This document shows positions 10,639-63,159 of a DNA stretch of 64,000 nucleotides, piece after piece. Each line of letters begins with the position of its first letter. Positions within the stretch are counted from its first letter, which is position 1. The stretch lies in contig OZ360227.1 of NCBI GenBank assembly GCA_977017645.1, positions 130,696,001-130,760,000 on the forward strand, in the 5' to 3' direction. Made by a program: the position numbers and the translations under genes. The notes below the pieces were generated by a model. It saw nothing but the letters and a program-made list of their open reading frames with translations, did not search any database and had not been told where the DNA came from. The stretch comes from Torpedo marmorata (taxonomy: Eukaryota).

Positions 10639-10674
10639 CATTTTAACTCAGATTTGAAGATAAAAGAACTTTAA

Positions 10675-33862: not shown

Positions 33863-34811
33863 TTTGGTTGATTGGTTGACATCAGCTGCATGAATAACAA
33901 TAGCGGGCGGGAACATTTTTGCATATGAATACCCTTCTTCCCCAGCCTGGTATTGATCTGTTAGCTGGGCAGCTTGGCCAGCGCCATTTTAGGGCTGCTG
34001 GTCTTGTACTGCTCCAGCTTTCAACCGCACCGGTTCGCTATGCTAAGGGTCGCGTTACAGTGTGTTATGCCACTGTTTACTACCGCTCGATCTCCGCGGT
34101 GGCGGGCCGCCACATGACCCCCCCCCCCAGAACCGGCGCTACAGTTCATAGTGTCCGTGGATGCAGTCCCCAATATCTTTGGTGGTCTGCCTCTGCCCCG
34201 AGGTGCTGGTGTCTCCACGGGTTGTGTCGGGTCCGAGTGTGCCGGCTTGAGCCTGTCTGCGGTGAAGACCTCTGGTTTGCCACCGATGTCCAGTTCGAAG
34301 GTGGCCCCGTTGTTCCGGACGACTCGGAAGGGGCCTTCGTGGGGCTTCTGGAGTGGTGGATGTGATATACCTATCAATGACAGACGCGAGTCTAGAAGTG
34401 CAGGAATTAATAGGCTTTTATTACCAGAATCAAAGCCAGGGCTAAGCTACACCTTGACCTGGTGATCCCTGCTGGATTGTCCCGGAACTGGGGGAGGAGT
34501 TGCTGGCTCAAGGCCTTTATTCCATGTAAAGGGGGAGGAGTCACCGGGACAGACAGACAGGTCATGGTCATACCTGCCTCAGGCCACAATACATACTAAA
34601 AGTGGTTTACCACATTCACCCCTTCTTTTAGAACAAGTCCGACGGGGGGGGTGAAGTGGATACCATAGTCTTAACGGGAGAGGAGAAGAAAATACAAATA
34701 CCCATAGATTATATACATAGTCTAATATACCAACACCCATAGATTATACATAGTCTTTACAAATTGAGTCTAAGAAAAAAAATACAAATACCCATAGATT
34801 ATACATAGTCT

Positions 34812-37800
34812 TTACAAATCGAGTTTCACCGGCGGCCGGATTTGCCGCCGTGACCTGCGTAGCGCCAGCGGTGATGGTAGTGGTTGTGGAATGAGGGTAC
34901 GTGATGCCTGCGGAGACGGTTGTGGTTGTGGAACGGGAGTAGGTGTAGTAGGGTGGATCTGGGTCTGGTTTGCCTCCTGCCTGGCTAGTGGCCTGTCCAG
35001 CTGTGACGGGGGCGTTGTACCCGCCGTGCTGGGAGGCGGATGGGCCGGAGGGGGCAGCTGCGACCCGGCGTTCCCGCTGTCGGGGACCTCTTCTGACGCT
35101 CCTGCAGGAGCCAGGTCCCGTATGGACACCGTGTCTTCCCGTCCGTCAGGGAAAACAACGAATGCATACTGCGGGTTCGCATGGATCAGCTGCACCCTCT
35201 CGACCAAGGGCTCGTACTTGCTACTCCGAAGATGTTTGCGGAGTAGCACCGGCCCCGGGGACGTCAGCCAGGCAGGGAGTGTAGTTCCGGTGGTCGATTT
35301 TCTGGGGAAGGAAAAGAGACGTTCGTGAGGGGTAGCGTTAGTGGCAGTACACAGAAGGGATCGTATGGAGTGGAGGGCGTCCGGGAGAACCTCCTGCCAG
35401 CGAGCCACTGGCCACCCTTTTGCTTTCATGGCCAGTAGTGTCGCTGTCCATACTGTGGCGTTCTCCCTCTCCACCTGTCCGTTCCCCCGTGGGTTGTACC
35501 CCGTGGTCCTACTGGTAGCGATGCCTCGGGTCTGCAAGTGCTGTCGCAGCTCCTCGCTCATGAACGCGGATCCCCGGTCGCTATGGACATAGCTGGGGAA
35601 CCCGAACATGGTGAATACCTGGTGGAGAGCCTTGATAGCCGACGCCGCCGAGGTATCTGGGCAGGGGATGGCGAAGGGGAACCGCGAGTACTCATCAATG
35701 ATGTTGAGGAAGTACACATTGCGGTTCGTGGAGGGGAGGGGGCCCTTGAAGTCTATACTGAGACGTTCGAACGGGCGGGTGGCCTTGACCAGCTGTGCTT
35801 TGTCGGGGCGGTAGTACTGCGGTTTGCATTCCGCACAGACTCGGCAGCTGCTGGTCATGGTCCTGACCTCATCCAGGGAGAAAGGCAGGTTCCGTGCTTT
35901 AATGAAGTGGAACAGCCTGTTAAATCCTGGGTGGCAGAGGTCATTATGTAGGGAGTATAACCGGTCGATCTGCGCGCTGGCGCACGATCCCCGGGATAGA
36001 GCGTCAGGGGGCTCGTTGAGCTTCCTGGGCCGGTACATGATGTCGTAATTATAGGTGGAGAGTTCTATTCTCCACCTCATGATTTTGTCATTCTTAATTT
36101 TACCCCGCTGCTGGCTGTTAAACATGAAAGCGACGGAGCGCTGGTCCGTCAGCAGGGTAAAATGTTTTCCGGCGAGATAGTGCCTCCAGTGCCGGACAGC
36201 CTCGACAATGGCCTGGGCCTCTTTCTCTACCGCGGAGTGCCGAATTTCGGGGCTTTGAAGGGTGCGGGAGAAAAACGCTACCGGTCTTCCCGCCTGGTTG
36301 AGGGTAGCAGCCAGTGCGAAGTCCGAGGCGTCACTCTCCACCTGAAAAGGTTCCGACTCGTCCACCGCGTGCATCGCTGCTCGGGCGATGTCCCCTTTTA
36401 TGAGGTCGAAGGCCTCACGTGCCTCCGCTGCCAGGGGAATCTTGGTGGATTTGACGAGGGGTCGGGCTTTGTCCGCGTAGTTTGGGACCCACTGTGCATA
36501 ATACGAAAAAAACCCGAGGCATCGTTTAAGTGCTTTGGGGGTAACGGGGATCGGAAGTTCCAACAGGGGGCGCATGCGGTCGGGGTCGGGTCCAATCACC
36601 CCGTTTTCCACGACGCACCCCAGGATAGCGAGTCGGGTAGTCCCGAACATGCATTTCTCCTTGTTATAGGTGAGGTTCAGCGTCTCGGCCGCCTGTAAGA
36701 ACTTCCGAAGGTTCCTATCGTGATCCTGGCGATCATGACCACAAATGGTGATGTCGTCCAGGTATGGGAAGGTGGCAGTGAGCTTGAACTGGTCAATGAT
36801 CCTGTCCATCTCCCTTTGGAACACGGATACCCCATTTGTTACCCCGAAGGGGACGCGCAGAAAATGAAATAATCTGCCGTCCGCCTCGAAAGCGGTGTAC
36901 ACTCGGTCCTCCCGGCGGATCGGGAGCTGATGGTAAGCCGACTTTAGGTCGATGGTGGAGAACACTTTATATTGAGCAATCTGGTTGACCATATCCGCGA
37001 TCTTTGGCAGCGGATAGGCGTCCAGTTGCGTGAACCGGTTGATGGTCTGGCTATAGTCCACCACCATCCGGCTCTTAGCCCCGTTCTTTACCACGACTAC
37101 CTGTGCTCTCCAGGGGCTATTACTGGGTGCAATGATCCCTTCCCCCAGTAAACGCTGCACCTCCGCCTTAATAAATGCCCTGTCCCCTGCACTGTATCGC
37201 CTACTTTTCGTTGCAATGGGCTTACAGTCAGGGGTCAGGTTGGCGAAGAGTGGCGGGGGTTGGGTCTTTAGCGTGGAGAGACCACAGGTAGTCTGGGGCG
37301 TGTTATTTAAGTATTGGGGGTTAGTCACTACGATCGGGGGGTGGGGCCCATCATAGTGCATGGTGACGCTACGCAGGTGGCTTTGGAAGTCCAATCCCAG
37401 CAATAAAGGAGCACACAGACGGGGCATGACCATCAACGAAAATTCCCGATATTCCGTGCCCTGTACCACTATATTCGCCACACAACCCCCCCGGATGTCT
37501 GTTGTGTGCGTTCCAGACGCCATGGCCACCCTCTGGCTTACCGGTACAACGGTGAGGCCACAGCGCTGGGCAGTGTCTGGATGTATGAAACTTTCGGTAC
37601 TGCCTGTGTCGAACAGGCAGGTGGTCTTATGCCCCTCAACGAGAATGTCCATCATTGATCTGGACAGTTGATGGGGCGCGCTCTGGTCCAGCGTCACGGA
37701 TGCCAGGGTCGAGACGAAGTCTTGGTCCGATGAGACGTCTTGATCCGGTGGCAGCTCCCTTTGCTCGCACGTGTCGCTACGAGATGGCGGCGCCGGAAGT

Positions 37801-38924
37801 GCTGGAAGTGCTGGCAGGGCCGCGGTGAGGTTGTAAAATGGCCGCGCCGGAAATGTGGAGATCGGAAGTGTAGACCAAGATGGCCGCCTCCAGTCCTCGC
37901 ACGAGGTCTCCGCCGGAAGTGACGTCAGGTAAGATGGCCGCTCCCCCCCGTCGCACGTGGCGCTGCTGGAAACCTGAAGTGCTGCGTGCTGTGATGGCCG
38001 CCTCCAGACCTCGCACGAGGTCTCCGCCGGAAGCGAAGTCAGGTAAGATGGCCGCTCCCGTACCTCGCACGCGGCGCTACTCGGACCCGTACGCGACTTG
38101 GAGCGGCAGGCCTTAGCATAGTGGCCTTTCTTGCCACAGCTAGAACAAGTCGCGTCTCGGGCCGGGCAGCGCTTGCGCGGGTGTTTGTCGAGCCCGCAGA
38201 AGTAGCACTTCTCGGGCTCCCGGGTGACAGCGGCAGCGGTTACCTCACTGGTGGCGGCGGGCTCTCGGGCAGCGGCGGCAGCGGCCAACTCACGGATGGC
38301 GTCGGCGGCGGCGAGCGGGTCCCGGTAGACGGCAGCGGCCATCGCGTTGCTTGCAGGGCTGGCGGTTGGGGCGATCCAAGAAGCAGGCTGCGCCTGCATG
38401 GCGTCAGCGTTCTTGAGGGCCGAGTCCAGCGTAAGGATGTTCTGGACGGTCGATTTCAGGGTCAGGGCGGCATGTTCCAGCAATCGCTGGCGGATGTAGC
38501 CCGACCTGATCCCCATTATGATCGTGTCCCTTGCCAGTATTTCGGCGTGTTGCTCGGCCGTCAGGGCTCGACAGTCACACGCCCGCACCAGGAGCATCAC
38601 GTCCTGGATGTATTCGGAGACCGACTCTCCGGGTCGCTGGTACCGCTGCGATAGCCGGTGCCTTGCGAAAATCTCGTTCACCGGCGTCAGGTACAGCTTT
38701 CGGAGGGCTTCCAAGGCATTATCGAAGGTCTCACAGTCCCTGACGGCGCCATACACTCGCTTGCTTACCCTGGACATGAGGATATCGAGTTTCTGTTCGT
38801 CAGTAACTGCTCCGGACGACCTCATGTAGGCTACGAAGCAGCGCAGCCAAAGTTCGAAGTCGCTTGCAGCGTCTTGGGCCAGGGGGTCGATGTCTAGCTT
38901 ATCCGGCCTTAACAAATTCTCCAT
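34812..38924 (-). CDS. Gag-Pol polyprotein (1370 aa): two Zn knuckles, protease, RT, RNase H, integrase
   Basis: CYFC..H..C, CSSCGKKGHYAKAC, LFDTGS, IDLKSAY, YLDD, VESDAS, HNDLCH..CRVC, IDFKGP, HSDRG, VEREN; no stops. Confidence 0.97.
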   Translation of the reverse strand: MENLLRPDKLDIDPLAQDAASDFELWLRCFVAYMRSSGAVTDEQKLDILMSRVSKRVYGAVRDCETFDNALEALRKLYLTPVNEIFARHRLSQRYQRPGESVSEYIQDVMLLVRACDCRALTAEQHAEILARDTIIMGIRSGYIRQRLLEHAALTLKSTVQNILTLDSALKNADAMQAQPASWIAPTASPASNAMAAAVYRDPLAAADAIRELAAAAAAREPAATSEVTAAAVTREPEKCYFCGLDKHPRKRCPARDATCSSCGKKGHYAKACRSKSRTGPSSAACEVRERPSYLTSLPAETSCEVWRRPSQHAALQVSSSATCDGGERPSYLTSLPAETSCEDWRRPSWSTLPISTFPARPFYNLTAALPALPALPAPPSRSDTCEQRELPPDQDVSSDQDFVSTLASVTLDQSAPHQLSRSMMDILVEGHKTTCLFDTGSTESFIHPDTAQRCGLTVVPVSQRVAMASGTHTTDIRGGCVANIVVQGTEYREFSLMVMPRLCAPLLLGLDFQSHLRSVTMHYDGPHPPIVVTNPQYLNNTPQTTCGLSTLKTQPPPLFANLTPDCKPIATKSRRYSAGDRAFIKAEVQRLLGEGIIAPSNSPWRAQVVVVKNGAKSRMVVDYSQTINRFTQLDAYPLPKIADMVNQIAQYKVFSTIDLKSAYHQLPIRREDRVYTAFEADGRLFHFLRVPFGVTNGVSVFQREMDRIIDQFKLTATFPYLDDITICGHDRQDHDRNLRKFLQAAETLNLTYNKEKCMFGTTRLAILGCVVENGVIGPDPDRMRPLLELPIPVTPKALKRCLGFFSYYAQWVPNYADKARPLVKSTKIPLAAEAREAFDLIKGDIARAAMHAVDESEPFQVESDASDFALAATLNQAGRPVAFFSRTLQSPEIRHSAVEKEAQAIVEAVRHWRHYLAGKHFTLLTDQRSVAFMFNSQQRGKIKNDKIMRWRIELSTYNYDIMYRPRKLNEPPDALSRGSCASAQIDRLYSLHNDLCHPGFNRLFHFIKARNLPFSLDEVRTMTSSCRVCAECKPQYYRPDKAQLVKATRPFERLSIDFKGPLPSTNRNVYFLNIIDEYSRFPFAIPCPDTSAASAIKALHQVFTMFGFPSYVHSDRGSAFMSEELRQHLQTRGIATSRTTGYNPRGNGQVERENATVWTATLLAMKAKGWPVARWQEVLPDALHSIRSLLCTATNATPHERLFSFPRKSTTGTTLPAWLTSPGPVLLRKHLRSSKYEPLVERVQLIHANPQYAFVVFPDGREDTVSIRDLAPAGASEEVPDSGNAGSQLPPPAHPPPSTAGTTPPSQLDRPLARQEANQTQIHPTTPTPVPQPQPSPQASRTLIPQPLPSPLALRRSRRQIRPPVKLDL
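37780..38070 (+). promoter_or_regulatory. YY1/ETS/CRE motif array in a ~60-bp-period repeat inside the Gag-PR linker
   Basis: ATGGC(C/G)G cores near 37782, 37835, 37876, 37931, 37992 and 38045; CGGAAGTG at 37794 and 37863; CCGGAAGTGACGTCA at 37913-37927. Confidence 0.5.
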
Positions 38925-40073
38925 CGGATTCGGATTTTCTTGAAATTGGTAATAAAATTGATATACCTATCAATGACAGACGCGAGTCTAGAAGTGCAGG
39001 AATTAATAGGCTTTTATTACCAGAATCAAAGCCAGGGCTAAGCTACACCTTGACCTGGTGATCCGTGCTGGATTGTCCCGGAACTGGGGGAGGAGTTGCT
39101 GGCTCAAGGCCTTTATTCCATGTAAAGGGGGAGGAGTCACCGGGACAGACAGACAGGTCATGGTCATAACTGCCTCAGGCCACAATACATACTAAAAGTG
39201 GTTTACCACAGGATGGTGTGGCCCTCTGCGTACGAACACATACTCACAGTCTTGGAGTTCTTTAGGGATGTTGAACTTGGCTTGCCCGTGTCTGGAGGGT
39301 GAGATCGGAGCCAGGTTACCGACCTTTTCCCGCAGCCTGTCCAGGAAGGTGGTTGTATCCTCCTGTTGACCTCTGGCTGGTGGGACGAAATCCCCAGGGA
39401 CCATGAGTGGAGCTCTGTAGACGAGCTCGGCGGAGGATGTGTGGAGGTCTTCCTTCGAGGCTGTACGAATCCCCAGCAGTGCCCATGGCAGTTCGTCAAC
39501 CCAGTTGGGTCATAAGAGCAGCCTTGAGGTGCCTGTGGAAGCGCTCAACCAGCCCGTAGACTGCGGGTGGTATGCTGTTGTGTGGTGTAGCTGAGCGCCC
39601 CACAGGTTGGCAACGTCGGTCCACAGGCTGGAGGTAAATTGTGCGGCTCTTTCGGAGGTTATGTGGCGTGGTAGCCCGAACCTTGCTACCCAGGACAAGA
39701 CGAGTGCCTTGGCGTCGAACCTGGTGGATGTGTCGGCCAGGGGGATTGCTTCTGGCCACCGGGTGAAACGGTCGACCACCGTGAACAGGTAGCGGAAACC
39801 CTGTGAGACTGGTAAGTGTCCCACTACGTCCACGTGAATGTGGTCAAACCATCGCTCCGTTGGCTCGAAAGGCTGCAGGGGAACCTTGGTGTGCCGCTGT
39901 ACTTTGGCTGTTTGGCACTGTGTGCATGTCTTGGCCCGCCCGCTGACTTGTTTCTGCAATCCATGCCACGCGTACTTGCTGGCCATCAACCGGACCGTGG
40001 TCCTGTTTGATGGATGTGCCAGCCCGTGGATGGAGTCGAAAACTCGTCGCCTCCATGCCGTTGGGACGATAGG

Positions 40074-41984
40074 AATCTTGAGAGGAATTAGGAAAGCTAA
40101 AAGAAGGTACGAGGAGACTATAGCAAGCAGGGTGAAAATTAATCCAAAAGGTTTCTACAAATACGTTAATGGTAAAAGGAAAGCGAGGGACAAAATTGGT
40201 CCCTTAGAGAATCAGAGCGGAAAACTGTGTGTGGAGCCTAGAGAAATGGGGGAGATATTGAACAGTTTCTTTTCTTCGGTATTCACCAAGGAGAAGGATA
40301 TTGGGATATGCGAGATAAAAAAAAGCAAATTGGGTAAATATGGAGAATATAGTGATTACGAAAGATGTATTGTTAGGGCTTTTGAGGCATATAAAGGTGG
40401 ATAAGTCTCCGGGACCAGACGGGATCTTCCCCAGGACCTTGAGAGAAATAAGGGAGGAAATAGCAGAGGCTCTGACGGTAATTTTCCAAATGTCATTAGA
40501 GATGGGGATAGTGCCGGAGGATTGGCGTATTGCGCATGTGGTTCCGTTATTTAAAAAGGGTTCAAGGAGGAAGCCTGGCAATTATCGGCCTGTAAGTTTG
40601 ACGTCTGTGGTAGGTAAATTAATGGAGAAAGTTCTTAGAGATAGTACTTATAAATATCTGGATAGACAGGGTCTGATCAGGAACACTCAACACGGATTTG
40701 TGAGCGGAAGGTCCTGTTTGACCAATCTGATTGAATTTTTTGAAGAGGTGACTAGAAATGTGGATGAGGGTAGCGCGGTGGATGTTGTCTATATGGACTT
40801 CAGTAAGGCCTTCGATAAGGTACCACATGGAAGGTTAGTTAGGAAGGTGCAGTCTTTAGGTATAAATTTTGAGATAGTCAAATGGATTGAACATTGGCTG
40901 AAAGGGAGAGGCCAGAGAGTGGTAGTGGATAATTGTCTGTCAGGTTGGAGGCCGGTGACCAGCGGTGTGCCTCAGGGATCTGTATTGGGCCCATTGTTGT
41001 TCGTTATATACATTAATGATCTAGATGATGGGGTGGTGAACTGGATTAGTAAATATGCAGATGATACTAAGATAGGTGGAATAGTGGATAATGAAGAAGG
41101 TTTTCAAGGATTGCAGAGAGATTTGGGCTGCTTAGAAAAGTGGGCTGAAAAATGGAAAATGGAGTTTAATGCTGATAAGTGTGAGGTGCTTCATTTTGGT
41201 AAGAAGAATCAGAACAGGACATACATAGTAAATGGGAGAGCATTGATGAATACCGAAGAGCAGAAAGATTTAGGAGTAATGGTGCATCGTTCCCTGAAGG
41301 TAGAAACTCATGTGAATAGGGTGGTGAAGAAGGCTTTTAGTATGCTGGCCTTTATCAATCATTGCATAGAATATAGGAATTGGGAAGTGATGTTGAGATT
41401 ATATAAGGCGTTGGTGCGGCCTAATTTAGAGTTCTGTGTGCAGTTCTGGTCGCCAAATTATAGGAAGGATATCAACAGAGTGGAGAGAGTGCAGAGAAGA
41501 TTTACCAGAATGTTACCTGGGTTTAAGCATCTAGAGTACAAGGAGAGATTGAGCAGATTAGGTCTTTATTCTTTGGAGCGTAGAAGGTTGAGAGGGGATT
41601 TGATAGAGGTATTTAAGATTATGAAAGGGATAGACAGAGTGGATGTGGATAGACTATTTCCGTTAAGAGTAGGAGAGATTGAAACAAGAGGACATGAGTT
41701 AAAAGTTAAGGGGCAGAGGTTTAGAGGTAGCATGAGGGGGAACTTCTTTACTCAGAGAGTGGTAGCGGTGTGGAATGAGCTTCCGGGAGAAGTAGTGGCG
41801 GCAGAGTCAATTTTATTATTTCAGAAAAAGTTGGACAGGTATATGGATGAGAAGGAGGTGGAGGGTTATGGGCAGGGTGCAGGTAGGTGGGACTAGAGAG
41901 GAGTGTTTGGTTCGGTGTGGACTAGAAGGGCCTAATGGCCTGTTTCCATGCTGTAATTGTTATATGGTGTTATATGGTGTTATA
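40074..41984 (+). mobile_element. 5'-truncated young CR1 LINE inserted in Gypsy-1 pol
   Basis: Open 518-aa RT ORF at 40340-41896; TATGGTGTTA tandem tail; no TSD, small target deletion. Confidence 0.95.
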
Positions 41985-44363
41985 ACCTGCCATGTCGCAC
42001 AGGAGGGTTGTGTTACCTGTGCCGACTGGGATGTCCTGAAGCTTCAGCCCCGTGACGGCAGTCCTGTACTGAGGCATCTCATCGTCCTGCTGCTGTGCCT
42101 CCCGCCAGTGCCACGAAATCCAGTCCGTTAGCCAGAGAGTGGATGCTCTGTCTCGACAAGGCGTCCGCGACCACGTTGTCTTTTTCCGAGATGTGCCTTA
42201 CGTCAGTGGTGTACTCCGAGACGTAAGACATGTGTCTCTGCTGGCGAGCTGACCAGGGATCGGAGATCTTGCCCAGGGCAAACGTCAGTGGCTTGTGGTC
42301 CGTGAAAGCCCTTCCCTCTAGGAAGTACCGGAAGTGGCGGATGGCTAAGTACAGCGCCAGTAACTCTCTGTCGAAAGCACTGTACTTTAGCTCAGGGGGC
42401 CGCAGATGTTTGCTGAAGAAAGCTAGTGGATGCCAACTTCCTTCTATCTGCTGCTCCAGAACTCCACCAATCGCCGTTCCTGAGGCATCGACCGTGAGGG
42501 CTGTGGGTGCATCTGAGCTGGGGTGGGCCAGGAGTGCGGCATTAGCCAGGGCTTCCTTCGCTTCCACGAATGCTCGTGCGGAGTCAACGTCCCAGGTCAA
42601 GTCCTTCGCCTTGCCGGTCATCAGGGTGAAGAGTGGGCGCATGGTTCGAGTAGCTGCGGGGAAGAATCTGCGATAAAAGTTGACCATCCCCACGAACTCC
42701 TGCAGTCCATTGGTCGTACTGGGCCTCGGGAAGTTGCGGATAGCCTCCACCTTGCTGGGTAGTGTCATGGCCCCGCATTTGCTAATCCTGTGGCCCAGGA
42801 AGTCAATTGTGCTCAGCCCGAACTGGAATTTAGCCAGGTTGATAGTAAGGCCGAACTAATGTAGGCAACTGTAGAGGCTTCGGAGGTGTTGTAAATGTTC
42901 CTGCCGGGTTCTGCTCGCCACCAGGATATCGTCCAAGTAGACGAAGGTGCTGTCTAGGACTCGGCCCACCGCGTCCATCAGTCGCTGGAAGGTCTGTGCC
43001 GCATTCTTGAGCCCGAATGGCATCCTCAGGAACTCGAACAGCCCGAATGGAGTGATGATGGCCGTCTTGGGGATGTCGTCAGGGTGCACCGCGATTTGGT
43101 GGTACCCTCGCACCAAGTCCACTTTGGAGAAGATCATCGCTCCATGCAGGTTTGCCGCAAAGTCCTGGATATGCGGCACGGGGTAACGATCTGGAGTGGT
43201 GGCCTCGTTAAGCCGGCGGTAGTTGCCGCACCATCTCCAGCCCCCAGATGCTTTGGGCACCATGTGCGGGGAGAAGCCCATGGACTGTCCGACCCCCGAA
43301 CAATGCCTAACTCCTCGAGCTTGTGGAACTCCTCCTTGGCCAGTTGAAGCTTCTCCGGGGGAAGTCCTCTCACCCTTGCGTGGAGAGGTGGACCCTTGGT
43401 AAGGATGTGATGCCTGACGCCGTGTCGGGGCACCTCCGAGGAGTGGCTGTTCCACTGCGACCAGCGTGAACTCCCACGAGAAGTGACTGCCTCCAAACTG
43501 CAGGTCGGCCCTACGCTTTCCATAGGTCCGTATGCTGCTGTTGTTGGCAGCCCTCAACGTGGGGCCCGCTTGCTTGCATCTAGTGTCCAAACCTGTCGGG
43601 GGCATCACGCTGACCTCCGCTCCTGTATCCACCAAGAATCGTCTACCGGAAAGGTGATCCCATACATGCAGGAGGCTCTCTCGATGGCCACCGGCATCGG
43701 GGGGCCTCGGAGCCCCATCTTTGGTGGTAGAAGCACCATCTCTCCTTGGACACGTCCCTGCCTCTTGCCTGCCGCTCCTCTCCAGGGCCTGCCTTGGTCT
43801 GATTGCGAGACTTCATGACGAGCCCCACGGTAGCCGAGCACTTCTGTTTCTGCTTCCATAGAATATCTGCCCGTGCTGCGACTTTCCAGGGGTCGCTGAA
43901 ATCTTCGTCAGCCAGGAGCAGTTGGATGTCCTCGGGCAGCTGCTCCAAGAATGCCTGCTTGAACATGACGCAGAGCTCATGGTCTACCAGGAAGGCTAGC
44001 ATCTCGTTCATGAGCGCTGACGGGGATCTGTCCCCTAGCCCATGCAGGTGTAGCAGCCGTGCCCCTCTCTCTCGCCACGAGAGCCCGAAGGTCTCAGTCA
44101 ATAGTTCTTTGAAGGCAGTGTAAGTGCCTTCCGATAGTGGCCTCTGGATGAAGTTGGCCACCCTGTCTGCAGTCTCTGGATCCAGGGCGCTGACCACATG
44201 GTAGTACCGTGTGGTCTCAGCTGTGATGCGCCTAATCTGGAACTGAGCCTCAGCCTGGTCGAACCACGTGCCGGGTCGAACTATCCAGAAGGTCGGGAGC
44301 TTGAGGCCGACTGCGCTGATTGCTACTTTGCTATCCATCACTGCGTTTAAATGCTGTCTAAAC

Positions 44364-44377
44364 CATCGGGGTCACCA
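44364..44377 (-). promoter_or_regulatory. Primer-binding site of Gypsy-1, tRNA-Trp type
   Basis: Minus-strand TGGTGACCCCGATG, 2 nt from the LTR; matches the tRNA-Trp PBS TGGTGACCCCGACG known from Rous sarcoma virus. Confidence 0.85.
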
Positions 44378-45811
44378 ATTGTAGCCGACTGCTACGAAGA
44401 AACACACACACGCAATGTGGAAGGTTAAGCTCTCTGCCTTATTGAGGCTGGAAATGCTTCTTTTATACAGTTGGAGTTCCCGCCATTTGGTTGATATCAG
44501 CCGCATGAATAACAATAGCGGGCAGGAACGTTCTTGCATATGAATACCCTTCTTCCCCAGCCTGGTATTGATCTGTTAGCTGGGCAGCTTGGCCAGCGCC
44601 ATTTAAGGGCTACTGGTCTTGTACTGTTTCAGCTTTCAACCGCGCCGGTTCGCTACGCTAAGAGTCGCGTTACAGTGTGTTATGCCGCTGTTTACTACCA
44701 CGCGCGCCGCGCGATGTGCCGGCTCGATCTCCGCGGTGGCGGGCCGCCACATAGTTATGTTTAGTACTTTCTTGCATATCCCTTTGCATGCAATGACTGC
44801 TTGAAGTTGTGTGATTCATAGACATCACTTCGTGCTGAGTATCTTCTCTGGTGATGCTCTGCCAGGCCTCTACTACAGCCATCTTCAGCTCTTGCTTGTT
44901 TCGGGGGCTTGTCCCTTCAAGTTTTCTCTTCAGCATATGGTTGGGGCAAAAGTTGACAAATTTTGTATATTAATGTACATGACAAAAGGAATCTTGAATG
45001 TTAACCTTAATGCCTTCAAAGTTACATTATTTATCTGACCTGTTCTCTTCTGCTCCTCTTTTGATGTAATTTTTTTGCAACCTTTTCCTGTTAAAGCAAA
45101 AATATACACTGATACATATAGCATTAAATCTCCCCACAACTGTTTCATGGAACTGGATAGCTGCTGCACAGATAGAATGTGCAGCATGCTCGTGTTAGCC
45201 CTGGAAAATGATGGCAATATATTGTTTTGTATTTCCTTATTTGTTGCTAAACTGGGGATGTGGGGTAAAAAATGCATAGGAGAACAGAAAAGATGCATCA
45301 AAGTGAAGGACCTAGTCCAATTACAACCTCATCAAAGATTTATATAATTACTTTCGATCTGCACTCAATTCACTTGAGATGATAAGAATTTGGTGCACAA
45401 TCTGATAATGGCAACTGAATTTGTATAAGTTAGATTTTGAAGAAATTTAATGACGTAAAAGAGGTCACTAAACAAATGAAATATTGCAACATGCAAGTTT
45501 CGTAAAGATTGGATAAGATTTCTGTCACGAGTTCAGCTGAGAGCAGAGATGCTTAAAACAATGGCGTTTTTAAATAACATTTATTATTTCCTCCCATTAA
45601 AAGGTCTGTCGTTTAAGCAAAATACTTCCACCAAACTCCTCTAAATGTAACCGCCTTGAATGATTAAAATTGAAGCTTCTCAAAATATACTGAATATTAG
45701 TAACATATAAGCAATGCATGATGAAAGGCAAAAAAATGAAATACATGGATAAACATAGAATAAGCATGCACAAAGTACAATATTTGCAAAAACTAGCGCA
45801 ATTTTTTTTAA

Positions 45812-46856: not shown

Positions 46857-46925
46857 ATGGAGTCGCAAAGGGCAGCTGAGCGCACCCCTCGGGACTTCAA
46901 TCAAATGAAGCAGGAGGCCAAGCAG
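46857..46925 (+). CDS. CCDC89: Coiled-coil domain-containing protein 89-like, first coding exon (MESQRAAERTPRDFNQMKQEAKQ)
   Basis: ACCATGG start, 69 bp, donor CAG|GTAGGG, phase 0 compatible with the 53234 acceptor. Confidence 0.7.
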
Positions 46926-50395: not shown

Positions 50396-52306
50396 TAAAA
50401 AAAAATATATTTTATTTAAATTTTTAAATCACACAATACACAATTCAAAATATATAATTTCCATAATACAAGTGATATAAATTTCCTCCCCCCAAACCCT
50501 CCTACCCTTCCCTAACCCCCCCAACCCCACTAATCTAAAAATAGTAAAAAAAAAGAAAAAAAGATTAATAGTGAGGAGAGAACCATCTAAAAACTTATTT
50601 TGTCCTGGAGGTTAAACTCACCAATAGACCTGATTTCTAGAGAATTCAAATCCTTAAACCCATAACTCTCATATATGGGCTCCAAATTTTAAAAAAAGAA
50701 TGATAATTATCTTTTGAATATCTATTTTTAATAAAACCAGCTTGATCTGGATGTATCAAATTTGGTAAATATTTAGCTATTCTATTAGCCAAAATTTTTG
50801 CCATAATTTTATAATCTACATTTAATAAAGAAATAGGTCTATATGACTCAGTCTTTAATACATCTCTATCTTTCTTTGGTATAACTAATAATAGCATTCA
50901 AAAAAGTTTTTGGTAATAAATGGGTTTCCGTAATCTGATTCAATACCTCCATATACGGAGGTATTAATAAGTCTTTAAATTCCTTATAAAATTCTACTGG
51001 AAATCCATCATCACCAGGAGATTTACCACTTTTCAACGTCGATAGAACTTCATTAACTTCTCTCATCGTAAAAGGTAAATCCAAAGAATTTTTATTCTGA
51101 ATATTTAATTTAGGTAAAGTAATTTTAGATAAAAATCTATTAATTTTCAAATCATCCTGAACAACCTGGGATCTATATAAATTCTGGTAATAATCTTTAA
51201 AAGATTCATTTATTTCTTGGGGTTTATAAGTTATTTCACCAGTATTTTTTTTCCTTATAGCATTTATAGTTTTAGAAACTTGTTCTTTTTTCAATTGCCA
51301 TGCTAAAACCTTATGGGCCTTTTCTCCTAATTCATAATATCTTTGTTTCATTCTCTCAATTAATTTTTCCGTTTTATAAGTTTGTAATAAATTATAATGT
51401 AGCTTCTTCCTCATTAATCGATTTTTTTTACAAATTGATTTATTTCTCTGTAAATCTTTTTCCATAATCTCAATCTCCTTCTCTAATTTTTCTGCTTCCT
51501 TCAAATAATCTTTCTTAATTTTTGCCGAATAACTTATTATCAGACCTCTAAGATAAGCTTTTAAAGTTTCCCAAATTATAAAGTTATCATTAATTGATTG
51601 ATCATTTATCCTCAAAAATTCTTGAATTTCCCTTCTCATATATTCACAAAAATCTGTCCTTTTCAATAAAGAAGAATCAAATCTCCAATTAAATATAGTT
51701 TTCTCCTTTTCTGGAATTATACATGTCATTAACAAAGGTGAATGATCTGAAATTATTCTCGCTTTATATGATACCTGTGATATTCTATCTTGAATTTGTG
51801 AAGATATTAAAAACAAATCTATCCTAGAGTATGAATCATGTCTAAAGAATAAAAAGAATAATCTTTCTCTCTAGGATTCAATTTCCTCCAAATATCTATT
51901 AAATTCAAATCTTTCATCAAACTAATAATTCTTTTAACTATTTTAGGCCTAACAGACGATCTAGAAGTCCTGTCCATTATTGAATCTAAACAACAATTAA
52001 AATCCCCCCCAATTAAAATATTTTCCTTAGCATCTGATAAATGCAAAAATACATCTTGAATAAATTGTTCATCATCTGGATTTGAAACATATAAATTCAT
52101 AAGAGTCCAAAATTCTGAATAAATCTGACAGTATACCAAAACATATCTACCTGCCACATCTATTACTACCGATTGTATTTTAAAGGGTAATTTTTTATTA
52201 ACTAAAATTGCTACCCCTCTAGCTTTAGAATTAAATGTAGAAGCTACCACATGTCCAACCCAATCTCTTTTTAATTTTTGATGTTCAACCTCTGTGAAAT
52301 GAGTTT
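50396..52306 (-). mobile_element. L1 (family A-like), 5'-truncated in EN and internally deleted (~2 kb)
   Basis: 14-bp TSD AGTGTCTTCAAGTT at 50382-50395 and 52307-52320; QAGFIKNRYSKDN joined directly to the terminal YHSFFKIWSPY. Confidence 0.92.
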
Positions 52307-53233: not shown

Positions 53234-53706
53234 GAAATAAATGTTTTGCCAATTACATTAGAGAAGTTACATGGATTGTCCCAAGAAGATAAAACAGAAA
53301 ATGCCTTGTTACGATCTAGAATAGATGAACAGTCACAGCTCATCTGTATACTAAAACAGCGGTCTGATGAGTACATTCGGCGTTGTCAAACTTTGGAAAC
53401 AATTAACACTGAGCTGGAGAACCAATGTGAGAACTTCAAGCAACAATTAGAGGGTGAACAAAAGTTGTCAGCTCAGCTAGAAGATCGATTCATGGATCTG
53501 GCATTAAATCACCAAGAAATTATCAAATTTAAGGATGAATACAAGAGGCAGAATTCAGTGCTTAGTGAGCAAAATAAAAAGCTTCAAAGAGAAAATGAAA
53601 ATCTTTTTTGTAAAGCCCTGCAGGAGAAGGATGACCAAATATTGAAACTGTCCAGTGAATTGGCAGAATGTTTGAAACAATGCAACATTCTAGAACAAGA
53701 AATAAA
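53234..53706 (+). CDS. CCDC89: Coiled-coil domain-containing protein 89-like, second coding exon
   Basis: Acceptor TTTTTGTTTAG|GAA, donor AA|[56 protein letters not shown] matches recalled human CCDC89 ([44 protein letters not shown]). Confidence 0.9.
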
Positions 53707-54729
53707 GTAAGCAATATTAATAACAACAAAGTTCAATATAATAGTTTTGGAGTGAAATTGTGTATCACAGAATCTCTAACCATCATCCTAATCCTAACCT
53801 GGAATCATGATTTAACTTCAATAATTCCTGATAACAGTTAGGAGTGAATGAACATATTGGATATACTTATTAGTGTTGCTTCTAGTAACATGTAATATTT
53901 TGGCCAGTTCTCATTTTATTGTTTGTTCACAAGATGTGGATATCATTGTCAAAATCAACATTCATTGGTTATCAGCAATAGCCTTTGAAATGTTAACTGA
54001 ACCATCTTCGTGAACCACTGTAGTTTATTTAGTTAAAATACATCACAATGTTGTTAGGTAGGAGATTCCAAGCTTTGGCTCAGTACTGATGAAGATTTTC
54101 AAGTTAAATTGGTTATGATTTGGTGGTAGCAGTGTTCTCATGTTCCTGCTGCTTTTGTTCTTATTAATGGTAGCCACATGAATGACTTTTTTAAGTTCCC
54201 AGATCTTTTATGAATCTATCCCATTAAACAAGTGAGTACAGAATTTCATCGACACAAGTACTCCCACCATGATGGTCATAGACAGATATATCTGTCTCAG
54301 ATAGATTACTGAGGACGATGTAAATGGGTTTTTCTTCTTCAGTTGGTTCACTCACCACATGTATCAGGTCCAGTTTGGAAGCCAAGTCTTTTAGAGATAA
54401 ATGCCTCAATCAAAATGGTGTTATTGATCAATGAAGTCCCCCATCTGGACAACATTCTGTGTTCAGAATTCTACGTAGTGGTCAATGTGATGTAGTATTG
54501 ATTATATAATTGAGACAGGCCTCAGTAGAAGGCTTCCTAATATGGGTTTGACCTGATGCTAGGAGATTACTTGGAGTCTGGAGTCAATGTTCTAAACTCT
54601 AAGCTGCATGGGAATCTTCCATCTCCTTTGATTAGTCTGTCCAACAGTGGCTAGGACATACCTAGGAGGAGCCTGGAATGTCAACAGAAAGGTATGGTTC
54701 TTTAAATACAATATATATCATGTTTTTCT

Positions 54730-55200: not shown

Positions 55201-56401
55201 CGGACTGTTCAGTATCACAAAATACAACTGGAAATAGATAAAGCATGTCAGGGGGACAGCGTTACGATAATTATGGGGATTTTAACATGAAAGTACATTG
55301 GGAAAGTCAGGTCAGTACGGGACCTCAGGAGAGAGAGTTTGTGGAATGCCTACAGGATGGCTTTTTGGAGCAGCTTGTTGATGAGCCTACCAGGGGATCA
55401 GCTGTTCTGGATTGCGTGCTGTGTAATGAACGGAGGTGATTAGAGATCTTAAGGTAAAGGAACCCTTAGGAGGCAGTGATCACAATATGATTGAGTTCAC
55501 TTTGAAATTTGAAGAGGAGTGGCTAGAGTCTGATGTGTCGATATTTCAGTGGAGTAGAGGAAATTACAGTCGCGTGAGAGAGGAACTGGCAAAGTCGATT
55601 GGAAAAACACACTAATGGTCAAGCCAGTAGATCAGCAATGGCTGGAGTTTATGCGCGAAATGAGGAAAGTGCAGGACAGGCACATACCCAAAAGAAAAAA
55701 TTGTGAATGGAAAAATGAGACAATTGTGGCTGACGAGGGAAGTTAAAGCCAAAGTAAAAGCAAAAGAGAGGGCATACAAGGAAGCAAAAATTGGTGGGAA
55801 GATAGAGGACTGGTAAACTTTTCAAAACTTGGAGAAGACAACTAAGAAGGTGATTAGGAAGGAAAAGATGAATTATGAAAGGAGGTTAGCAAGTATTATC
55901 AAAGAGGATACTAAAAGCTTTTTTAAATATATAAAGAGTGAAAGAGTGACCAAAGTAGACATAGAACCAATAGAAAATGACGCTGGAGAAATTGTAATGG
56001 GAGACAAGGCGATGGCAGAGGAACTGAATGAATATTTTGGATCAGTCTTCACTGTGGAAGACATTAGTAGCATACCGGACTCTCATGGTTTTCTCGGAAG
56101 AGAAGTGAGTGCGGTCAAGATCAAGAGAGAGAAGATACTTGGGAAGCTAAATGGTCTAAGGGTAGATAAGTCTCCCGGACCAGATGGAATGCACCCTCGG
56201 GTTCTGAAGGAGGTAGCTATAGAGATTGTGGAGGCATTGGTAATAATCTTCCAAGAATCAATGGAGTCTGGCATGGTTCCAGTGGACTAGAGAATCGCAA
56301 ATGTCACACTGCTGTTTAAGAAGGGAGTGAGGCAGCAAAAAGCAAATTATAGACCTATTACCCTGATGTCGGTGGTTGGGAAGCTGTTGGAGTCAATTGT
56401 C

Positions 56402-57375
56402 AAGGATGAAATTACGTAATACCTGGAGGTGCATGAAAAGATAGACCCAAGTCAGTATGCTTTCCTTAAAGGAAAATCATGCCTGACAAACCTATTGCAA
56501 TTTTTTGAAGAGATCACAAGTAGGATAGACAGGGGAGATGCAGTGGGTGTTGTGTATTTGGACTTTCAAAAGACAACGTGTCACACATAAGGCTGCTAAA
56601 CAAGATGAGAGCCCATGGAATTATAGGAAGGTTACTAGCATGGTTAGAGCATTGGCTGGTTGGCAGGAAACAGAGAGTTGGCTACCAACTACCAGTGGTG
56701 TTCCGCAGGGGTCGGTGTTGGCGCCGCTTCTTTTTACGTTGTATATAAATGATTTGGATTATGGAATAGATGTCTTTGTGTCTAAATTTGCAGATGACAC
56801 TAAAAATAGGTGGTAGGGGAGGTGGTGCTGAGGATACTGAAAGGCTGCAGAGAGACTTGGATAGATTAGGAGTTAGAGGTGGCAGATAAAATACAATGTT
56901 GGAAAGTTTACTGCACTTTGTTAGAAGAAATAAATGGGCAGACTACTATTTAGATGGGGAGAAAATTCAAAATTCGGAGGTGCAAAGGGACTTGGGAGTC
57001 CTCGTGCAGGATATCCTAAAGGTTGACCTCCAGGTTGAGTCGGTGGTGAAGAAGGCGAATGCAATGTTGCCATTCATTTCTAGAGGAACAGCATAAAAAA
57101 GCTATGGATTTCCTCACCTCCAGACCACAATCTGTGAGGATTGGTAAGAACATCTCCTCCACAATCTCCATCATTACCAGAGCACCACAGGGCTGCGTTC
57201 TTAGCCCCCTACTCTACTCACTTTACACCTACGACTGTGTGGCTTGGTACGACAATAACACCATCTACAAATATGCCGACGATACCATGGTAGTGGGTTG
57301 TATAAAGAAAGGTGATGAGTCAGCATACAGGAGGGAGATTGAAAACTTGGCTGAATGGTGCACCAACAACAACCT
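56402..57375 (+). repeat. Left copy of the ~970-bp direct duplication flanking the L1
   Basis: Matches 60627-61600 at offset 4225; the ORF track has identical ORFs (56538/60763, 56896/61121). Confidence 0.95.
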
Positions 57376-60300
57376 AGTTCAATGGATAATAAATTTATTA
57401 TTTGGGATACTTTAAAAGCTTATTTAAGAGGTCAAATAATAAGTTATTCAGCAAAGGTTAAAAAGGAATATACTCAAGAATTAGATAAATTGGAGAAAGA
57501 GATTGAATTTTTGGAAAAAGATTTACAAAAGAGAAAATCAGAAGAAAAAAGGAGGAATTTAATTGGAAAGAAATTGTATTATAATACATTGCAATCATAT
57601 AAAACGGAAAAAGTAATTGAAAGAACTAAACAAAGATATTATGAATTGGGTGAAAGAGCACATAAAGTGTTGGCTTGGCAATTAAAAAAAGAACAAACTT
57701 CTAGGACTATAAATGCTGTTAAAAAAAAGAATTCAAAGAAGATAACGTTTAAACCTCGGGAAATAAATGATTCTTTTAGGGAATTTTATTTAAATTTATA
57801 TAAATCTCAAACCGATAAAGGTGATTCTAAGGTGAATGCCTTTTTATCTAAGATTAAATTGCCTAGATTAAATATTCGAAGTAAAGAGTTTTTAGATTCT
57901 GCATTTACGATGAGAGAAGTTAATGAGGTACTTAGTTCTTTAGCAAATGGGAAATCTCCAGGTGAGGATGGTTTTCCACCAGAATTTTATAAGGAATTTA
58001 AAGATCTATTGATACCCCCATATATGGAAGTATTAAAACAAATAACGGAAACTCATTCTTTACCAGAAACATTTTCTAATGCAATAATAACAGTTATACC
58101 AAAAAAAGATAGAGATCCGTTGAAAACAGAATCTTATAGACCGATTTCATTGTTAAATGTGGATTATAAGATAATGGCGAAAATATTAGCAAATAGACTT
58201 GCTAGATATTTACCAGATTTAATTCATGAAGATCAAGCAGGTTTTATTAAGATAATATAGCTAGGTTAATTAGTTTAATTAATGTGGCACAAAAGAGAGA
58301 GGAATTATCATTAGTATTATCACTAGATGCTGAAAAGGCTTTTGATAGATTAGAGTGGAATTATTTATTTAAAGTATTGGAAAAATTTGGGTTTGGAACT
58401 ATATTTATTAATTGGATTAAAACTATATATAAAGAACCCTCTGCTAGGGTGGTTACAAATGGACAAATTTCTTCAAAGTTTTTGTTGACTAGGTCGACGC
58501 GACAAGGATGTCCGTTATCACCTGCATTATTTGTTTTAGCAATTGAACCTTTGGCGGAATTAATTAGACAAGATATTAAGATTGCGGGTATTAAAGTTGG
58601 AAATGAAGAACATAAGATTAATTTATTTGCAGATGATGTATTGATATATATGACAAAACCAATTACTTCTTTAATACATTTGGATGTTATACTGAGGGAA
58701 TATGGGGAGATTTCTGGTTATAAAATTAATTCTGATAAAAGTGAAATTATGGCATTAACACAAGATGATTATAGTAAATGTAAAGAAATTACACAATTTA
58801 AATGGTCAAACGAAGGAATTAAATATTTAGGTATAAAGATAGATACTAAACTAGCCAATTTGTATAAATTAAATTACTTACCATTATTTGCGAAAATTAA
58901 AGAAGATTTGGAAAGTTGGAAAGATTTACCTATAACTTTATTAGGAAGGGTAAATTGTATTAAAATGAATATCTTTCCAAGGATTCAATATCTTTTTCAA
59001 TCCATTCCATATGAAATTCCTCAAAAATTTTTTAAAGATTTAAATTTTATTATTAGGAAGTTTTTGTGGAAAGGTAAATTGGCTAGAGTAGCTATGGAAA
59101 AATTAACTTGGAATTATGAATTGGGTGGATTACAATTGCCTAATTTTCAAAATTATTATAAAGCAGCTCAACTATGGTTTATTAATGAATTGTTGGACTT
59201 AACAAAAGATTCGGCATGGATCCGGATAGAATTAAATAATATAGGAGAAGATTTGAAGGAAGAAGTTATTTATAAATGGAATTCTAAATTAATATTGATA
59301 AATGGTAAAAATTCTCCTATTTTTAAACATTTATTAGAAATATGGAATAGATTGGATAAAGAGATAGGAGCGAAAGGTTTAATTTCGCCAAATATGCCTT
59401 TATATCAAAATAGACTTATTCCGTTTGCTTTTAATAATCAGTTATTTAAAATTTGGTTTTTAAAGGGAATTAAGAAGGTAAATGATTGTTTTGAAGCTGG
59501 TAAATTTATTACTTTTCAAAGAATGAAAGATAAATTTAATATATTAAATAATACATATTTTGCCTATTTTCAAATTAAAGCTTTTTTAGTTGAAAAACTG
59601 GGCCATAATTTGGTTTTACCTCGACAAAGTGAATTTGAATTATTAGTTACAAACGGAGGTGTAAATAAATTTATTTCTCAAATGTATAAATTATTACAGA
59701 GGAAAATGCCTAAGGTAGCAATTCATAAATCAAGATTAAAATGGGAATTAGATTTGAATGTAACTATAGAAGAAAAACATTGGAAAGAATTATGTAAATT
59801 AAGTATGACTAAAATTATTAATGTCAGATATAGATTAGTGCAATATAATTTTTTTCATCAATTATATTTGACACCTAAAAAATTAAAGAAGTTTAATCCA
59901 GCGTTATCAGATATGTGTTTTAGATGTAATGGGGAAGAAGGTTCTTTTGTACATTCTACTTGGTTTTGTCCAAAGATTCAGGATTTTTGGTTTAAAGTTA
60001 AGGAATTTTTGGACAAAGTATTAAGAAATGTACTTCCAATGGATCCGATGATATTTTTATTTGGGGATATTAAAAGAATTAGTATTATGATGAATTTAAA
60101 TATGTATCAAATTGAGTTTTTGAGAATTGCTTTAGCGGTTGCTAAGAAATGTATCGCTATCACTTGGAAATCTGATGTAGACTTAGGTTTAGAAAGGTGG
60201 CACGCAGAACTTCGTTCTTGTATACCACTTGAAAAAATTACTTATAATTTACGTAATAAATATCATTTCTTTTCGAAAATATGGAGCCCATATATAAAAT

Positions 60301-60628
60301 TGGTCGGCTTAAAAATAAAAATTTGAAGATCTCTGAACATTGGATCAGGCTGGTAACCTAATTTCCACAAAATTTTAGTTTATAGTTATTTTTTAGTTTA
60401 GATTGACATTCTCCTTAGTTTTTTCTTTTTCTTTTCTTTACTTTATTTTATTTTATTTTATAGATTAGTAGGGGTGGGAGGGTTAGGGAGGGGTGGGGGG
60501 GTTAGGGTGGGGAGGGTGGTTGGGAGGGAGAAAATATATCACATGTATTTTGATAATTTTGCGATTTTATATAATGTATTTTGTGATTTAAAATTTTAAA
60601 TAAAATATTCAAAAAAAAAAAAAAAAAA
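57376..60628 (+). mobile_element. Young 5'-truncated L1 (family A) with a poly(A) tail
   Basis: ORF2 open except for one frameshift near 58250 (680-aa ORF 58284-60326); G-rich 3' UTR, AATAAA, A18 at 60611-60628. Confidence 0.96.
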
Positions 60629-61600
60629 GGATGAAATTACGTAATACCTGGAGGTGCATGAAAAGATAGACCCAAGTCAGTATGCTTTCCTTAAAGGAAA
60701 ATCATGCCTGACAAACCTATTGCAATTTTTTGAAGAGATCACAAGTAGGATAGACAGGGGAGATGCAGTGGGTGTTGTGTATTTGGACTTTCAAAAGACA
60801 ACGTGTCACACATAAGGCTGCTAAACAAGATGAGAGCCCATGGAATTATAGGAAGGTTACTAGCATGGTTAGAGCATTGGCTGGTTGGCAGGAAACAGAG
60901 AGTTGGCTACCAACTACCAGTGGTGTTCCGCAGGGGTCGGTGTTGGCGCCGCTTCTTTTTACGTTGTATATAAATGATTTGGATTATGGAATAGATGTCT
61001 TTGTGTCTAAATTTGCAGATGACACTAAAAATAGGTGGTAGGGGAGGTGGTGCTGAGGATACTGAAAGGCTGCAGAGAGACTTGGATAGATTAGGAGTTA
61101 GAGGTGGCAGATAAAATACAATGTTGGAAAGTTTACTGCACTTTGTTAGAAGAAATAAATGGGCAGACTACTATTTAGATGGGGAGAAAATTCAAAATTC
61201 GGAGGTGCAAAGGGACTTGGGAGTCCTCGTGCAGGATATCCTAAAGGTTGACCTCCAGGTTGAGTCGGTGGTGAAGAAGGCGAATGCAATGTTGCCATTC
61301 ATTTCTAGAGGAACAGCATAAAAAAGCTATGGATTTCCTCACCTCCAGACCACAATCTGTGAGGATTGGTAAGAACATCTCCTCCACAATCTCCATCATT
61401 ACCAGAGCACCACAGGGCTGCGTTCTTAGCCCCCTACTCTACTCACTTTACACCTACGACTGTGTGGCTTGGTACGACAATAACACCATCTACAAATATG
61501 CCGACGATACCATGGTAGTGGGTTGTATAAAGAAAGGTGATGAGTCAGCATACAGGAGGGAGATTGAAAACTTGGCTGAATGGTGCACCAACAACAACCT
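60627..61600 (+). repeat. Right copy of the ~970-bp direct duplication
   Basis: Starts at the L1 poly(A) end and runs seamlessly into the rest of the Rex element. Confidence 0.95.
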
Positions 61601-62408
61601 TGCACTTAATGTCACCAAAACTAAGGAGCTGATTGTTGACTTCAGGAAGGGAAAGCCAGAGGTGTACAATCCAGTGATCATTGGGGGATCAGAGGTGGAG
61701 AGGGTGAGCAAATTTAAGTTATTGGGAGTCACTATCTCAGAGGATCTTTCCTGGACCCAACACACTAATGTCATCGTGAAGAAAGCTCGTCAGCGCCTGT
61801 ACTTCCTCAAGAGTTTGCGGAGATTTGGTATGACACCAGAAACCCTTGCAAATTTCTACAGATGTGTGGTGGAAAGTGTGCTGACCGGCTGCATCACGGT
61901 CACCAATACCCCTGAGCGTAAAGCCCTCCAAAAGGTAGTGGACACAGCCCAGGATATCACAGGCAAAACCCTCCCCACTATCGAGAATGTCTGCAGGGAA
62001 TGCTGCCGTCGGAGAGCAGCAGCAATCATCAAGGATTCACACCACCCAGCATACGCTCTGTTCTCGCTGCTGCCATCAGGAAAGAGGTATAGGTGTCACA
62101 AGACTCTCACCACCAGGTTCAGGAACAGCTGCTACCCCTCCACCATCAGACTCCTCAACGACAAACTCAATCAGGGACTCATTTAAGGACTCTTGTGCAC
62201 TTTATTGATTTTTAAAAATTCTCTCTGTATTGCACAGTCAGTTTGTTTATATTCGTTATCTGTTTACAGTTCTTTATTTGTTTACATGTATACGGCTGTG
62301 TATAGTTTTTTTGCACTACCAGTAAGTGGTAATTCTGCCTCGCCTGCAGAAAAAAGTCTCAGGGTTGTATGTGATGTCATGTATGTACTCTGACAATAAA
62401 TCTGAAAT
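61328..62408 (+). mobile_element. Rex1/Babar LINE 3' part nested in CR1 (first ~270 bp duplicated at 57103-57375)
   Basis: [48 protein letters not shown], Rex tail. Confidence 0.92.
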
Positions 62409-63159
62409 CCGATAAGAGCAGGGATGTAATGTTGAGACTCTATAAAGCACTGGTGAGACCTCGCTTGGAGTACTGTGTACAGTACAGTTTTGGGCGCCAT
62501 ATTTGAGAAAATACATTGTGGCGTTGGAGAGGGTTCAGAGAATATTTACTAGAATGATACCAGGAATGAAAGGGTTGGTATATGAGGAATGATTGTCGGC
62601 TCTTGGACTCTTTGGAGTACAGAAGGATGAGGGGGGACCTCATAGAGGCATTTCGAATGGACAGAGTAGATGTGGCAATGATGTTTCCCATGATAGGAGA
62701 TTCTAGGACAAGAGGGCACAATTTCAGGATAAAAGGGCTTCAATTTAAAACAGAGATGTGGAAAAATTTCTTTAGTCAGGGTCGTAAGTCTGTGGAACGT
62801 TGCCACAGGCGGCTGTGGAAGTGAGGTTGTTGGGTGTATCTAAGGCAGAGATTGACAGGTATTTGATTAGTCAGGGCATCAAGGGTTATGGGCAGAAAGC
62901 CGGGGTGGGGCTAAGGGGGTGGATGGATCAGCTCATGATTAGAATGGCGGAGCAAACTCGACGGGCCAATGCGCCTACTTCTGCTCTATATATTGTGATC
63001 TTGTGAAACCTGGTCGCTGAAGCTATGAGGCAGCAGTTCCACTTGCTGCACCACTGTGTACCCCAGAGTTCATTAAATTTTATTTTAATCAGTTTCATGA
63101 CTAACATACAGATGCTAGTTTTTTTCAGTTCTATAATTTAATTAACAACTTAAACTTCA

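Follow-up and report, generated by a model that had tools for sequence, protein, structure and literature searches.

In target-primed reverse transcription (TPRT), a first nick in the target primes the synthesis of complementary DNA (cDNA) on the poly(A) of the element, and the target-site duplication (TSD) spans the interval from that nick to the point at which the 5' end becomes attached. Gilbert et al. (2002 and 2005, cited in PMC5223499) reportedly described large TSDs for engineered human L1. Here we analysed a 64,000-nt stretch of Torpedo marmorata contig OZ360227.1 (hereafter the window), the structure being known from the sequence of this one assembly alone. Downstream of two exons of the gene CCDC89, an L1-type long interspersed nuclear element (LINE) is flanked by two identical copies of a 974-bp block, and the two features probably arose together in a single L1 event.

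In HeLa cells, TSDs longer than 100 bp accompanied fewer than 10% of L1 events (PMC5223499). In cells deficient in nucleotide excision repair (NER), L1 TSDs ranged from 5 bp to 5.3 kb, with a median of 1,495 bp, and those in complemented cells reached up to 1.6 kb (Servant et al., PMC5223499). In wild-type chicken DT40 cells, a 1,228-bp TSD was found in 1 of 25 inserts of the fish LINE ZfL2-2 (Suzuki et al., PMC2666801). L1-bridged rearrangements form a further group, comprising a 22.6-Mb tandem duplication for which a sister-chromatid model was proposed (PMC7058536) and L1-junction tandem duplications of 1-10 kb, which were treated as large TSDs and ascribed to break-induced replication, the normal second nick being argued to be positionally constrained (bioRxiv 2024.12.14.628481). 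For ordinary L1-clade insertions, the TSD length peaks at 13-15 bp across hosts (PMC4245944).

The locus resembles the engineered human L1 insertions of HeLa and NER-deficient cells in carrying a direct duplication of 0.1-5 kb, 974 bp falling within the reported range; however, those insertions were plasmid-driven and made in cultured cells, whereas the present element is endogenous, lies in the assembly of an animal, is presumably inherited and has no known repair defect behind it. With ZfL2-2 in DT40 it shares a fish LINE and a duplication of about 1 kb, which was a rare (1/25) outcome in those repair-proficient cells, but ZfL2-2 belongs to the L2 clade and was assayed in cultured cells of another species, while the element described here is taken to be of the L1 clade. 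In the L1-bridged tandem duplications of tumours and L1-induced clones (PMC7058536; bioRxiv 2024.12.14.628481), as here, one L1 with a poly(A) and a nick site, the latter putative in our case, joins both breakpoints; those cases are human and somatic, with reads and copy number behind them, whereas ours is read from an assembly only. Ordinary L1-clade insertions, such as three in the window and those surveyed in PMC4245944, are alike in family (77-85% identical), in the poly(A) or A-rich tail, in 5' truncation and in junction geometry, but their TSDs measure 12-15 bp and the duplication here is about 70 times longer. As interpreted below, the locus is a further example of a known outcome, an L1 with a large TSD, which has been documented mainly in HeLa, repair-deficient and tumour cells. 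In open-access titles and abstracts, exclusive of supplements, we found no report of a kilobase TSD at an inherited L1 insertion of any cartilaginous fish.

Direct comparison of the two copies of the block (B) revealed 974 equal bases out of 974 and 0 mismatches, and the exact match could not be extended beyond 56402/60627 at its left end or 57375/61600 at its right end. Two A's at the start of the right copy merge with the 18-A run of the L1 tail and are indistinguishable from it; therefore, the length of the duplication is 972-974 bp. No other exact direct repeat in the window is as long, the runner-up being a 684-bp pair of long terminal repeats (LTRs), and chance is not a candidate for its source. 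The left copy ends at 57375 and the first L1-like sequence follows at 57376-57379, while the right copy starts at 60627, directly at the poly(A) end of the L1. A CR1 reading frame (tblastn frame 56120-56572) passes through the left edge of the left copy, and a Rex open reading frame (ORF; 61275-62186) passes through the right edge of the right copy. Because both outer flanks are continuous in this way, deleting the L1 together with one copy of B restores an unbroken target. As assembled, the layout A-B-L1-poly(A)-B-C is exactly that of a TSD. In addition, the stops and frameshifts of the decayed CR1 within B are the same in both copies, and the duplication is younger than the decay of the block.

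These results agree with a sequence-only reading of the same DNA, which had claimed two flanking blocks without differences, a left copy ending at the L1 5' junction (57375/57376) and a right copy starting at the poly(A) (60627) and continuing into the Rex element, as the ORF crossing 61600 demonstrates. It had also taken the block for local target DNA, and the continuity of CR1 and Rex at the outer edges confirms this. Its rejection of a 3' transduction was likewise upheld: the poly(A) directly follows the 3' untranslated region (UTR), and the right copy, which lacks a tail of its own, continues as the Rex ORF. An LTR pair was rejected as well, since the copies run from AAGG to ACCT rather than from TG to CA, are made of decayed CR1 plus Rex, and enclose L1 ORF2. 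A canonical L1 insertion, with a TSD of about 7-20 bp at its junctions, was rejected because no short junction-anchored repeat was present; the best matches in the junction areas were 5-6 nt long and lay off the junctions. A search for hairpins or repeats marking the far breakpoint of the duplication returned nothing beyond short matches of 70-88%.

Three related L1s in the window, L1a, L1b and L1c, are 85%, 83% and 77% identical to the inserted L1 and have exact TSDs of 15, 12 and 14 bp, respectively, so that the earlier statement of three relatives with TSDs of 12-15 bp was correct. The context of the first nick of the inserted L1 would be GTC/AAGG. The core of this context, TC/AA, was found exactly in L1c and, with one mismatch next to the tail allowed, in L1b, and was not found in L1a. 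The right edge of B (ACCT/TGCA) is unlike it.

To compare the age of the L1 with that of the duplication, conserved alignment columns were used, an indirect approach adopted because the best protein homologue is only 58% identical. The absence of any difference between the two copies of B corresponds to a divergence of at most 0.15% per copy (95% bound). In an alignment of 120 homologues, the inserted L1 showed 0 private changes at 78/78 columns with at least 90% conservation, its 2 differences at such columns both being common to both sister copies, and 1 conservative change among the 125 columns with at least 80% conservation. At the columns of at least 90% conservation L1b carries 4 private changes, one of them a stop; L1a carries none there and has 2 stops elsewhere. 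No stop occurs in 2,931 coding bases of the inserted L1, and its branch dN/dS values were 0.08 and 0.12. Conserved columns, stops and dN/dS together place the upper bound on its decay at about 0.9% (95%). Judged by these measures the inserted L1 looks young, though equal youth with its flanks goes beyond what a bound of about 0.9% can tell.

We consider it probable that the insertion and a genuine tandem duplication of 974 bp, a large TSD or L1-bridged duplication, both go back to one recent L1 retrotransposition. Both junctions lie at the positions expected from TPRT and the outer flanks are native, which supports a single event. The first nick by ORF2p would have fallen on the bottom strand, at the left edge of B; reverse transcription would have been primed there on the poly(A) and would have stopped after about 3.25 kb, and the cDNA end would then have been joined to a DNA end 974 bp downstream instead of at the 12-15 bp usual for the family. 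For the way to this far end we lean, tentatively and with less than even confidence, towards a replication-linked route, in which either the upstream end may have grown by break-induced replication or a broken sister chromatid may have captured the cDNA. This route is favoured over a distant nick because the element sets TSD length in the L1 clade and because the second nick has been argued to be positionally constrained, both arguments coming from the literature and not from this sequence. A distant nick, break-induced replication, sister-chromatid capture and a template jump to pre-mRNA all yield the same letters. The resulting B-L1-B structure should be unstable, as recombination between the copies deletes the L1 without trace, and insertions with large TSDs have been suggested to be lost through recombination between their TSDs (PMC5223499).

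The sequence-only reading had combined the layout of a TSD, which stands, with second-strand cleavage about 1 kb from the first nick, which corresponds to one published model and is not settled by the sequence. That model, proposed for large TSDs in NER-deficient cells, uses a distant and unrelated nick (PMC5223499); here the top strand would have been cut 974 bp away, the strands between displaced and both filled in, and the observed product would result. Such a course requires the unwinding of about 1 kb, it departs from the TSD of 13-15 bp that the L1 clade sets across hosts (PMC4245944) and from the 12-15 bp of the local copies, and the dissimilar right edge of B bears no sequence mark of a nick; we regard this sub-case of a single event as rather unlikely. 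Much less probable is an RNA-templated origin, in which the reverse transcriptase (RT) would leave the truncated L1 RNA, switch, at the right edge of B, to the CCDC89 pre-mRNA as it was being transcribed, and copy back through B, the cDNA then annealing seamlessly to the upstream target. The L1 does lie on the CCDC89 strand, as such a template switch requires, and chimeras have been described as arising when the L1 RT switches to other RNAs (bioRxiv 2025.02.02.635956); yet the same orientation is a coin toss for a single event, large TSDs in cell assays have been explained by DNA-only routes, and no report of such large TSDs made in this manner was found in open-access titles and abstracts. 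If it were true, some large TSDs would be retro-copies of the insertion site, formed in the germline of transcribed genes, and would make up a hidden class that escapes TSD pipelines with windows of 5-75 bp. All routes other than those named in this text share only a sliver of our confidence.

Several observations weigh against a single event that left a real duplication. A 16-nt frameshifting deletion in the L1 stands beside flawless flanks, which is a mild conflict, and if the deletion post-dates the insertion, separate ages are favoured about 3-5 fold, with indel-to-substitution ratios of 0.05-0.2 assumed; its weight would be less if it arose during copying, and all 3 copies of the window that cover this site are broken there. 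The nick motif is weak evidence, since TC precedes 741 of the 8,083 (9%) non-A-AA sites in the window. At the 5' junction, the nearest copy upstream of 57376 is only 77% identical, and microhomology or extra bases are not callable from such a copy. Among the pieces listed from four runs of relatives, neither L1 junction is spanned by a contig, a result that speaks neither for nor against the structure. In PMC4805530, the TSDs of inherited, disease and tumour L1 insertions in humans are almost all shorter than 30 bp, and all 10 of the 10 large-TSD candidates checked from an amplification-based assay were chimeras. The earlier statement that very long L1 TSDs are rare holds for inherited insertions (PMC4805530), but large TSDs as such are an established phenomenon, an example being the 1,228-bp case (PMC2666801). 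In addition, an assembly artefact at a haplotype join would explain together why the identity is perfect, why the poly(A) junction is real and why the L1 is slightly older: an ordinary L1 with a short TSD would sit at the left edge of B on one haplotype, and the contig of the empty haplotype would overshoot by 974 bp and be joined to a contig starting inside the L1. However, there is no N gap and no common sequence at the join of B and L1, so that a chimeric read or a gapless patch would be required; two haplotypes might differ somewhere in 974 bp, depending on heterozygosity, and the base accuracy of the window looks high. The longest exact match that L1 and target share measures 12 nt and lies internally, off the junctions, so that their homology offers neither a path to this layout in an overlap graph nor a point for recombination. 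The window contains no N, has intact ORFs of 1,384 and 1,069 amino acids (aa) and preserves 2 differences between the 252-bp LTRs of one pair; these signs suggest that the assembly is accurate and keeps nearby repeats apart. We judge such an artefact unlikely.

A two-step origin seems very improbable to us. Here two L1s of the same subfamily, on different chromosomes, would have inserted 974 bp from each other, one at either edge of B, and unequal crossing-over within them would have left a hybrid L1 between two copies of B. The L1 and the duplication could then differ in age, in keeping with the 16-nt deletion; the L1 family appears abundant in the closest relative, and a C/AAC context, also present at L1b and L1c, marks the start of the last 11 bases of B. 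Against it, two same-strand insertions within 1 kb plus a crossover are required, and the copies of B would stem from different haplotypes, yet they are identical. Nor does the L1 look like a mosaic, although the test is weak: its identity to L1a shows no clear step (0.84-0.91 across most of ORF2).

Both ORF2 pieces of the inserted L1 matched Pfam RVT_1 in a profile search. In a protein search the best hit was an unnamed protein at 58%, followed by fish RT proteins at 30-46%, some of them with endonuclease domains and one named LIN1. We take the insert to be L1-type from these homologue names and from sequence motifs. Its 5' truncation is seen by comparison with L1c, which reaches about 0.7 kb further 5'. 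An A-rich spot early in the RT region is broken in all 3 L1 copies of the window that cover it, by the 16-nt deletion at about 58250, by a 5-nt expansion at about 22460-22480 and by the start of a deletion of about 2 kb at about 50710-50728; it may be a family-specific fragile site during copying. L1c itself (about 50398-52305, minus strand) lies antisense in CCDC89 intron 1 with its exact 14-bp TSD, and retains part of the endonuclease region, about 2 kb of the RT being gone. L1b (31673-33861) is inserted in a copy of a repeat of about 370 bp (31555-34115). This repeat recurs at 44379-44752, adjoining a broken Gypsy-like ORF set (42079-44371); probably a solo LTR is involved.

A search by sequence words brought up seven sequencing runs, the best of them with 0.45 of the words, and four of the seven were compared; all four consist of contigs of relatives 1-8% diverged. 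In the closest, X1, 21 differences occur over about 2,100 unique bases, while X7 differs by about 5% and X2 by about 8%. The summed contig depth of the L1 (57421-60480) relative to Rex, which is not a copy number, was about 1 in X1 and at most 0.07 in the other three, a hint of a lineage-specific L1 expansion. A joint from 57372 to 61553 in X2 and X6 was considered as an empty allele and rejected; with a short side of 26 letters and 5 other letters between the two parts, it was read as an artefact of the Rex family.

The target is a nest of older elements, whose CR1 and Rex labels we presume from the earlier reading and from sequence motifs. The CR1/Rex junction lies inside B at about 57102-57107. 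In three relatives, CR1-family contigs lack Rex and join 57094 to 62414 or 61319 to 62413; therefore, the junction is specific to this locus and not to the CR1 family, just as the earlier reading had held for the junction spanned by the block. A contig of the relative about 8% diverged extends from unique DNA into the start of the CR1, as far as 55307, which suggests that the CR1 is old. The nesting order, as read from these boundaries, is CR1, then Rex, then the L1 with the duplication. Two other CR1-type copies (4446-5892 and 40530-41978) are 95% identical and have uninterrupted RT ORFs of 515-525 aa; thus, besides the decayed CR1 at the insertion site, the window holds members of a young CR1 family.

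The coding exon of CCDC89 upstream of the insertion is 94% identical to the electric ray protein and 89% to that of sawfish. The gene is multi-exon here. Residues 182-357 of CCDC89 were not found in the 64-kb window, and this part, over half of the protein, must be encoded beyond it. Provided that the later exons lie past 64000, the L1 and the duplication are in intron 2 of CCDC89, and the probable CCDC89 intron of the earlier reading is borne out, on the same proviso, by the two exons located. The features are listed in Table 1.

Table 1. Features of the CCDC89 exons, the L1 insertion and its nested target in the window (positions count from the first letter of the window)
Feature	Position	Strand	Remarks
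CCDC89 first coding exon, aa 1-23	46857..46925	+	protein match
CCDC89 coding exon, aa 24-181	53234..53707	+	upstream of the intron holding the L1
Old CR1-type LINE, 5' part	55250..57101 (left end approximate)	+	stops and frameshifts; earliest element of the nest
Left copy of the 974-bp block	56402..57375	+	decayed CR1 RT region plus first ~270 bp of the Rex-type LINE; CR1 upstream, L1 5' junction at its end
5'-truncated L1-type LINE, 3,251 bp	57376..60626	+	starts between the endonuclease and RT regions of ORF2; host-gene strand
ORF2 piece 1 (linker and RT start)	57376..58250	+	stop-free
16-nt deletion site, shifting the ORF2 frame	58246..58253	+	by comparison with L1c and with family contigs of relative X1
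ORF2 piece 2 (RT to C-terminus)	58251..60326	+	691 codons without a stop
L1 3' UTR	60327..60610	+	T-rich and G-rich (G4-pattern) tracts
Poly(A), 18 A	60611..60628	+	last two A's common with the start of the right copy; putative first-nick site, GTC/AAGG
Right copy of the 974-bp block	60627..61600	+	runs on into the undisturbed Rex element
Rex-type LINE (RT and PF09004) inside CR1	61327..62409	+	first ~270 bp duplicated at about 57102-57375
CR1 3' part, resuming beyond Rex	62410..62980 (right end approximate)	+	tblastn; contigs of relatives

Two LTR elements were observed elsewhere in the window. The element at 34363-39210 has 252-bp LTRs with 2 differences and one intact gag-pol-like ORF of 1,384 aa (34812-38966), and looks like a recent Gypsy-type copy. 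The element at 6346-11743 sits in a purine-rich simple repeat and has two 684-bp LTRs that are 100% identical, each with a 60-bp x3 tandem repeat; its interior holds an ORF of 1,069 aa with SAP and DUF1759 matches and no RT match. It is probably very recent and non-autonomous, and presumably of the BEL/Pao type.

Standard surveys would miss or mislabel such events because the TSD is defined as 5-25 bp (PMC12016303), TSDs are searched in 75-bp windows (bioRxiv 2025.02.02.635956), or flanking homology of at least 30 bp is classed as homology-associated and not as a TSD (PMC13320814). The present locus is a single intronic event that duplicated dead repeats; by itself it shows no sign of a function and cannot tell the mechanisms apart. 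If confirmed, it would be a natural, probably inherited large-TSD L1 in a lineage far from mammals, and would mean that kilobase L1-bridged duplications can form outside cell culture and tumours and be carried in an animal genome. Duplications of a kilobase are large enough that they could copy an exon, and their clean loss by recombination may explain the apparent absence of kilobase TSDs from genomes.

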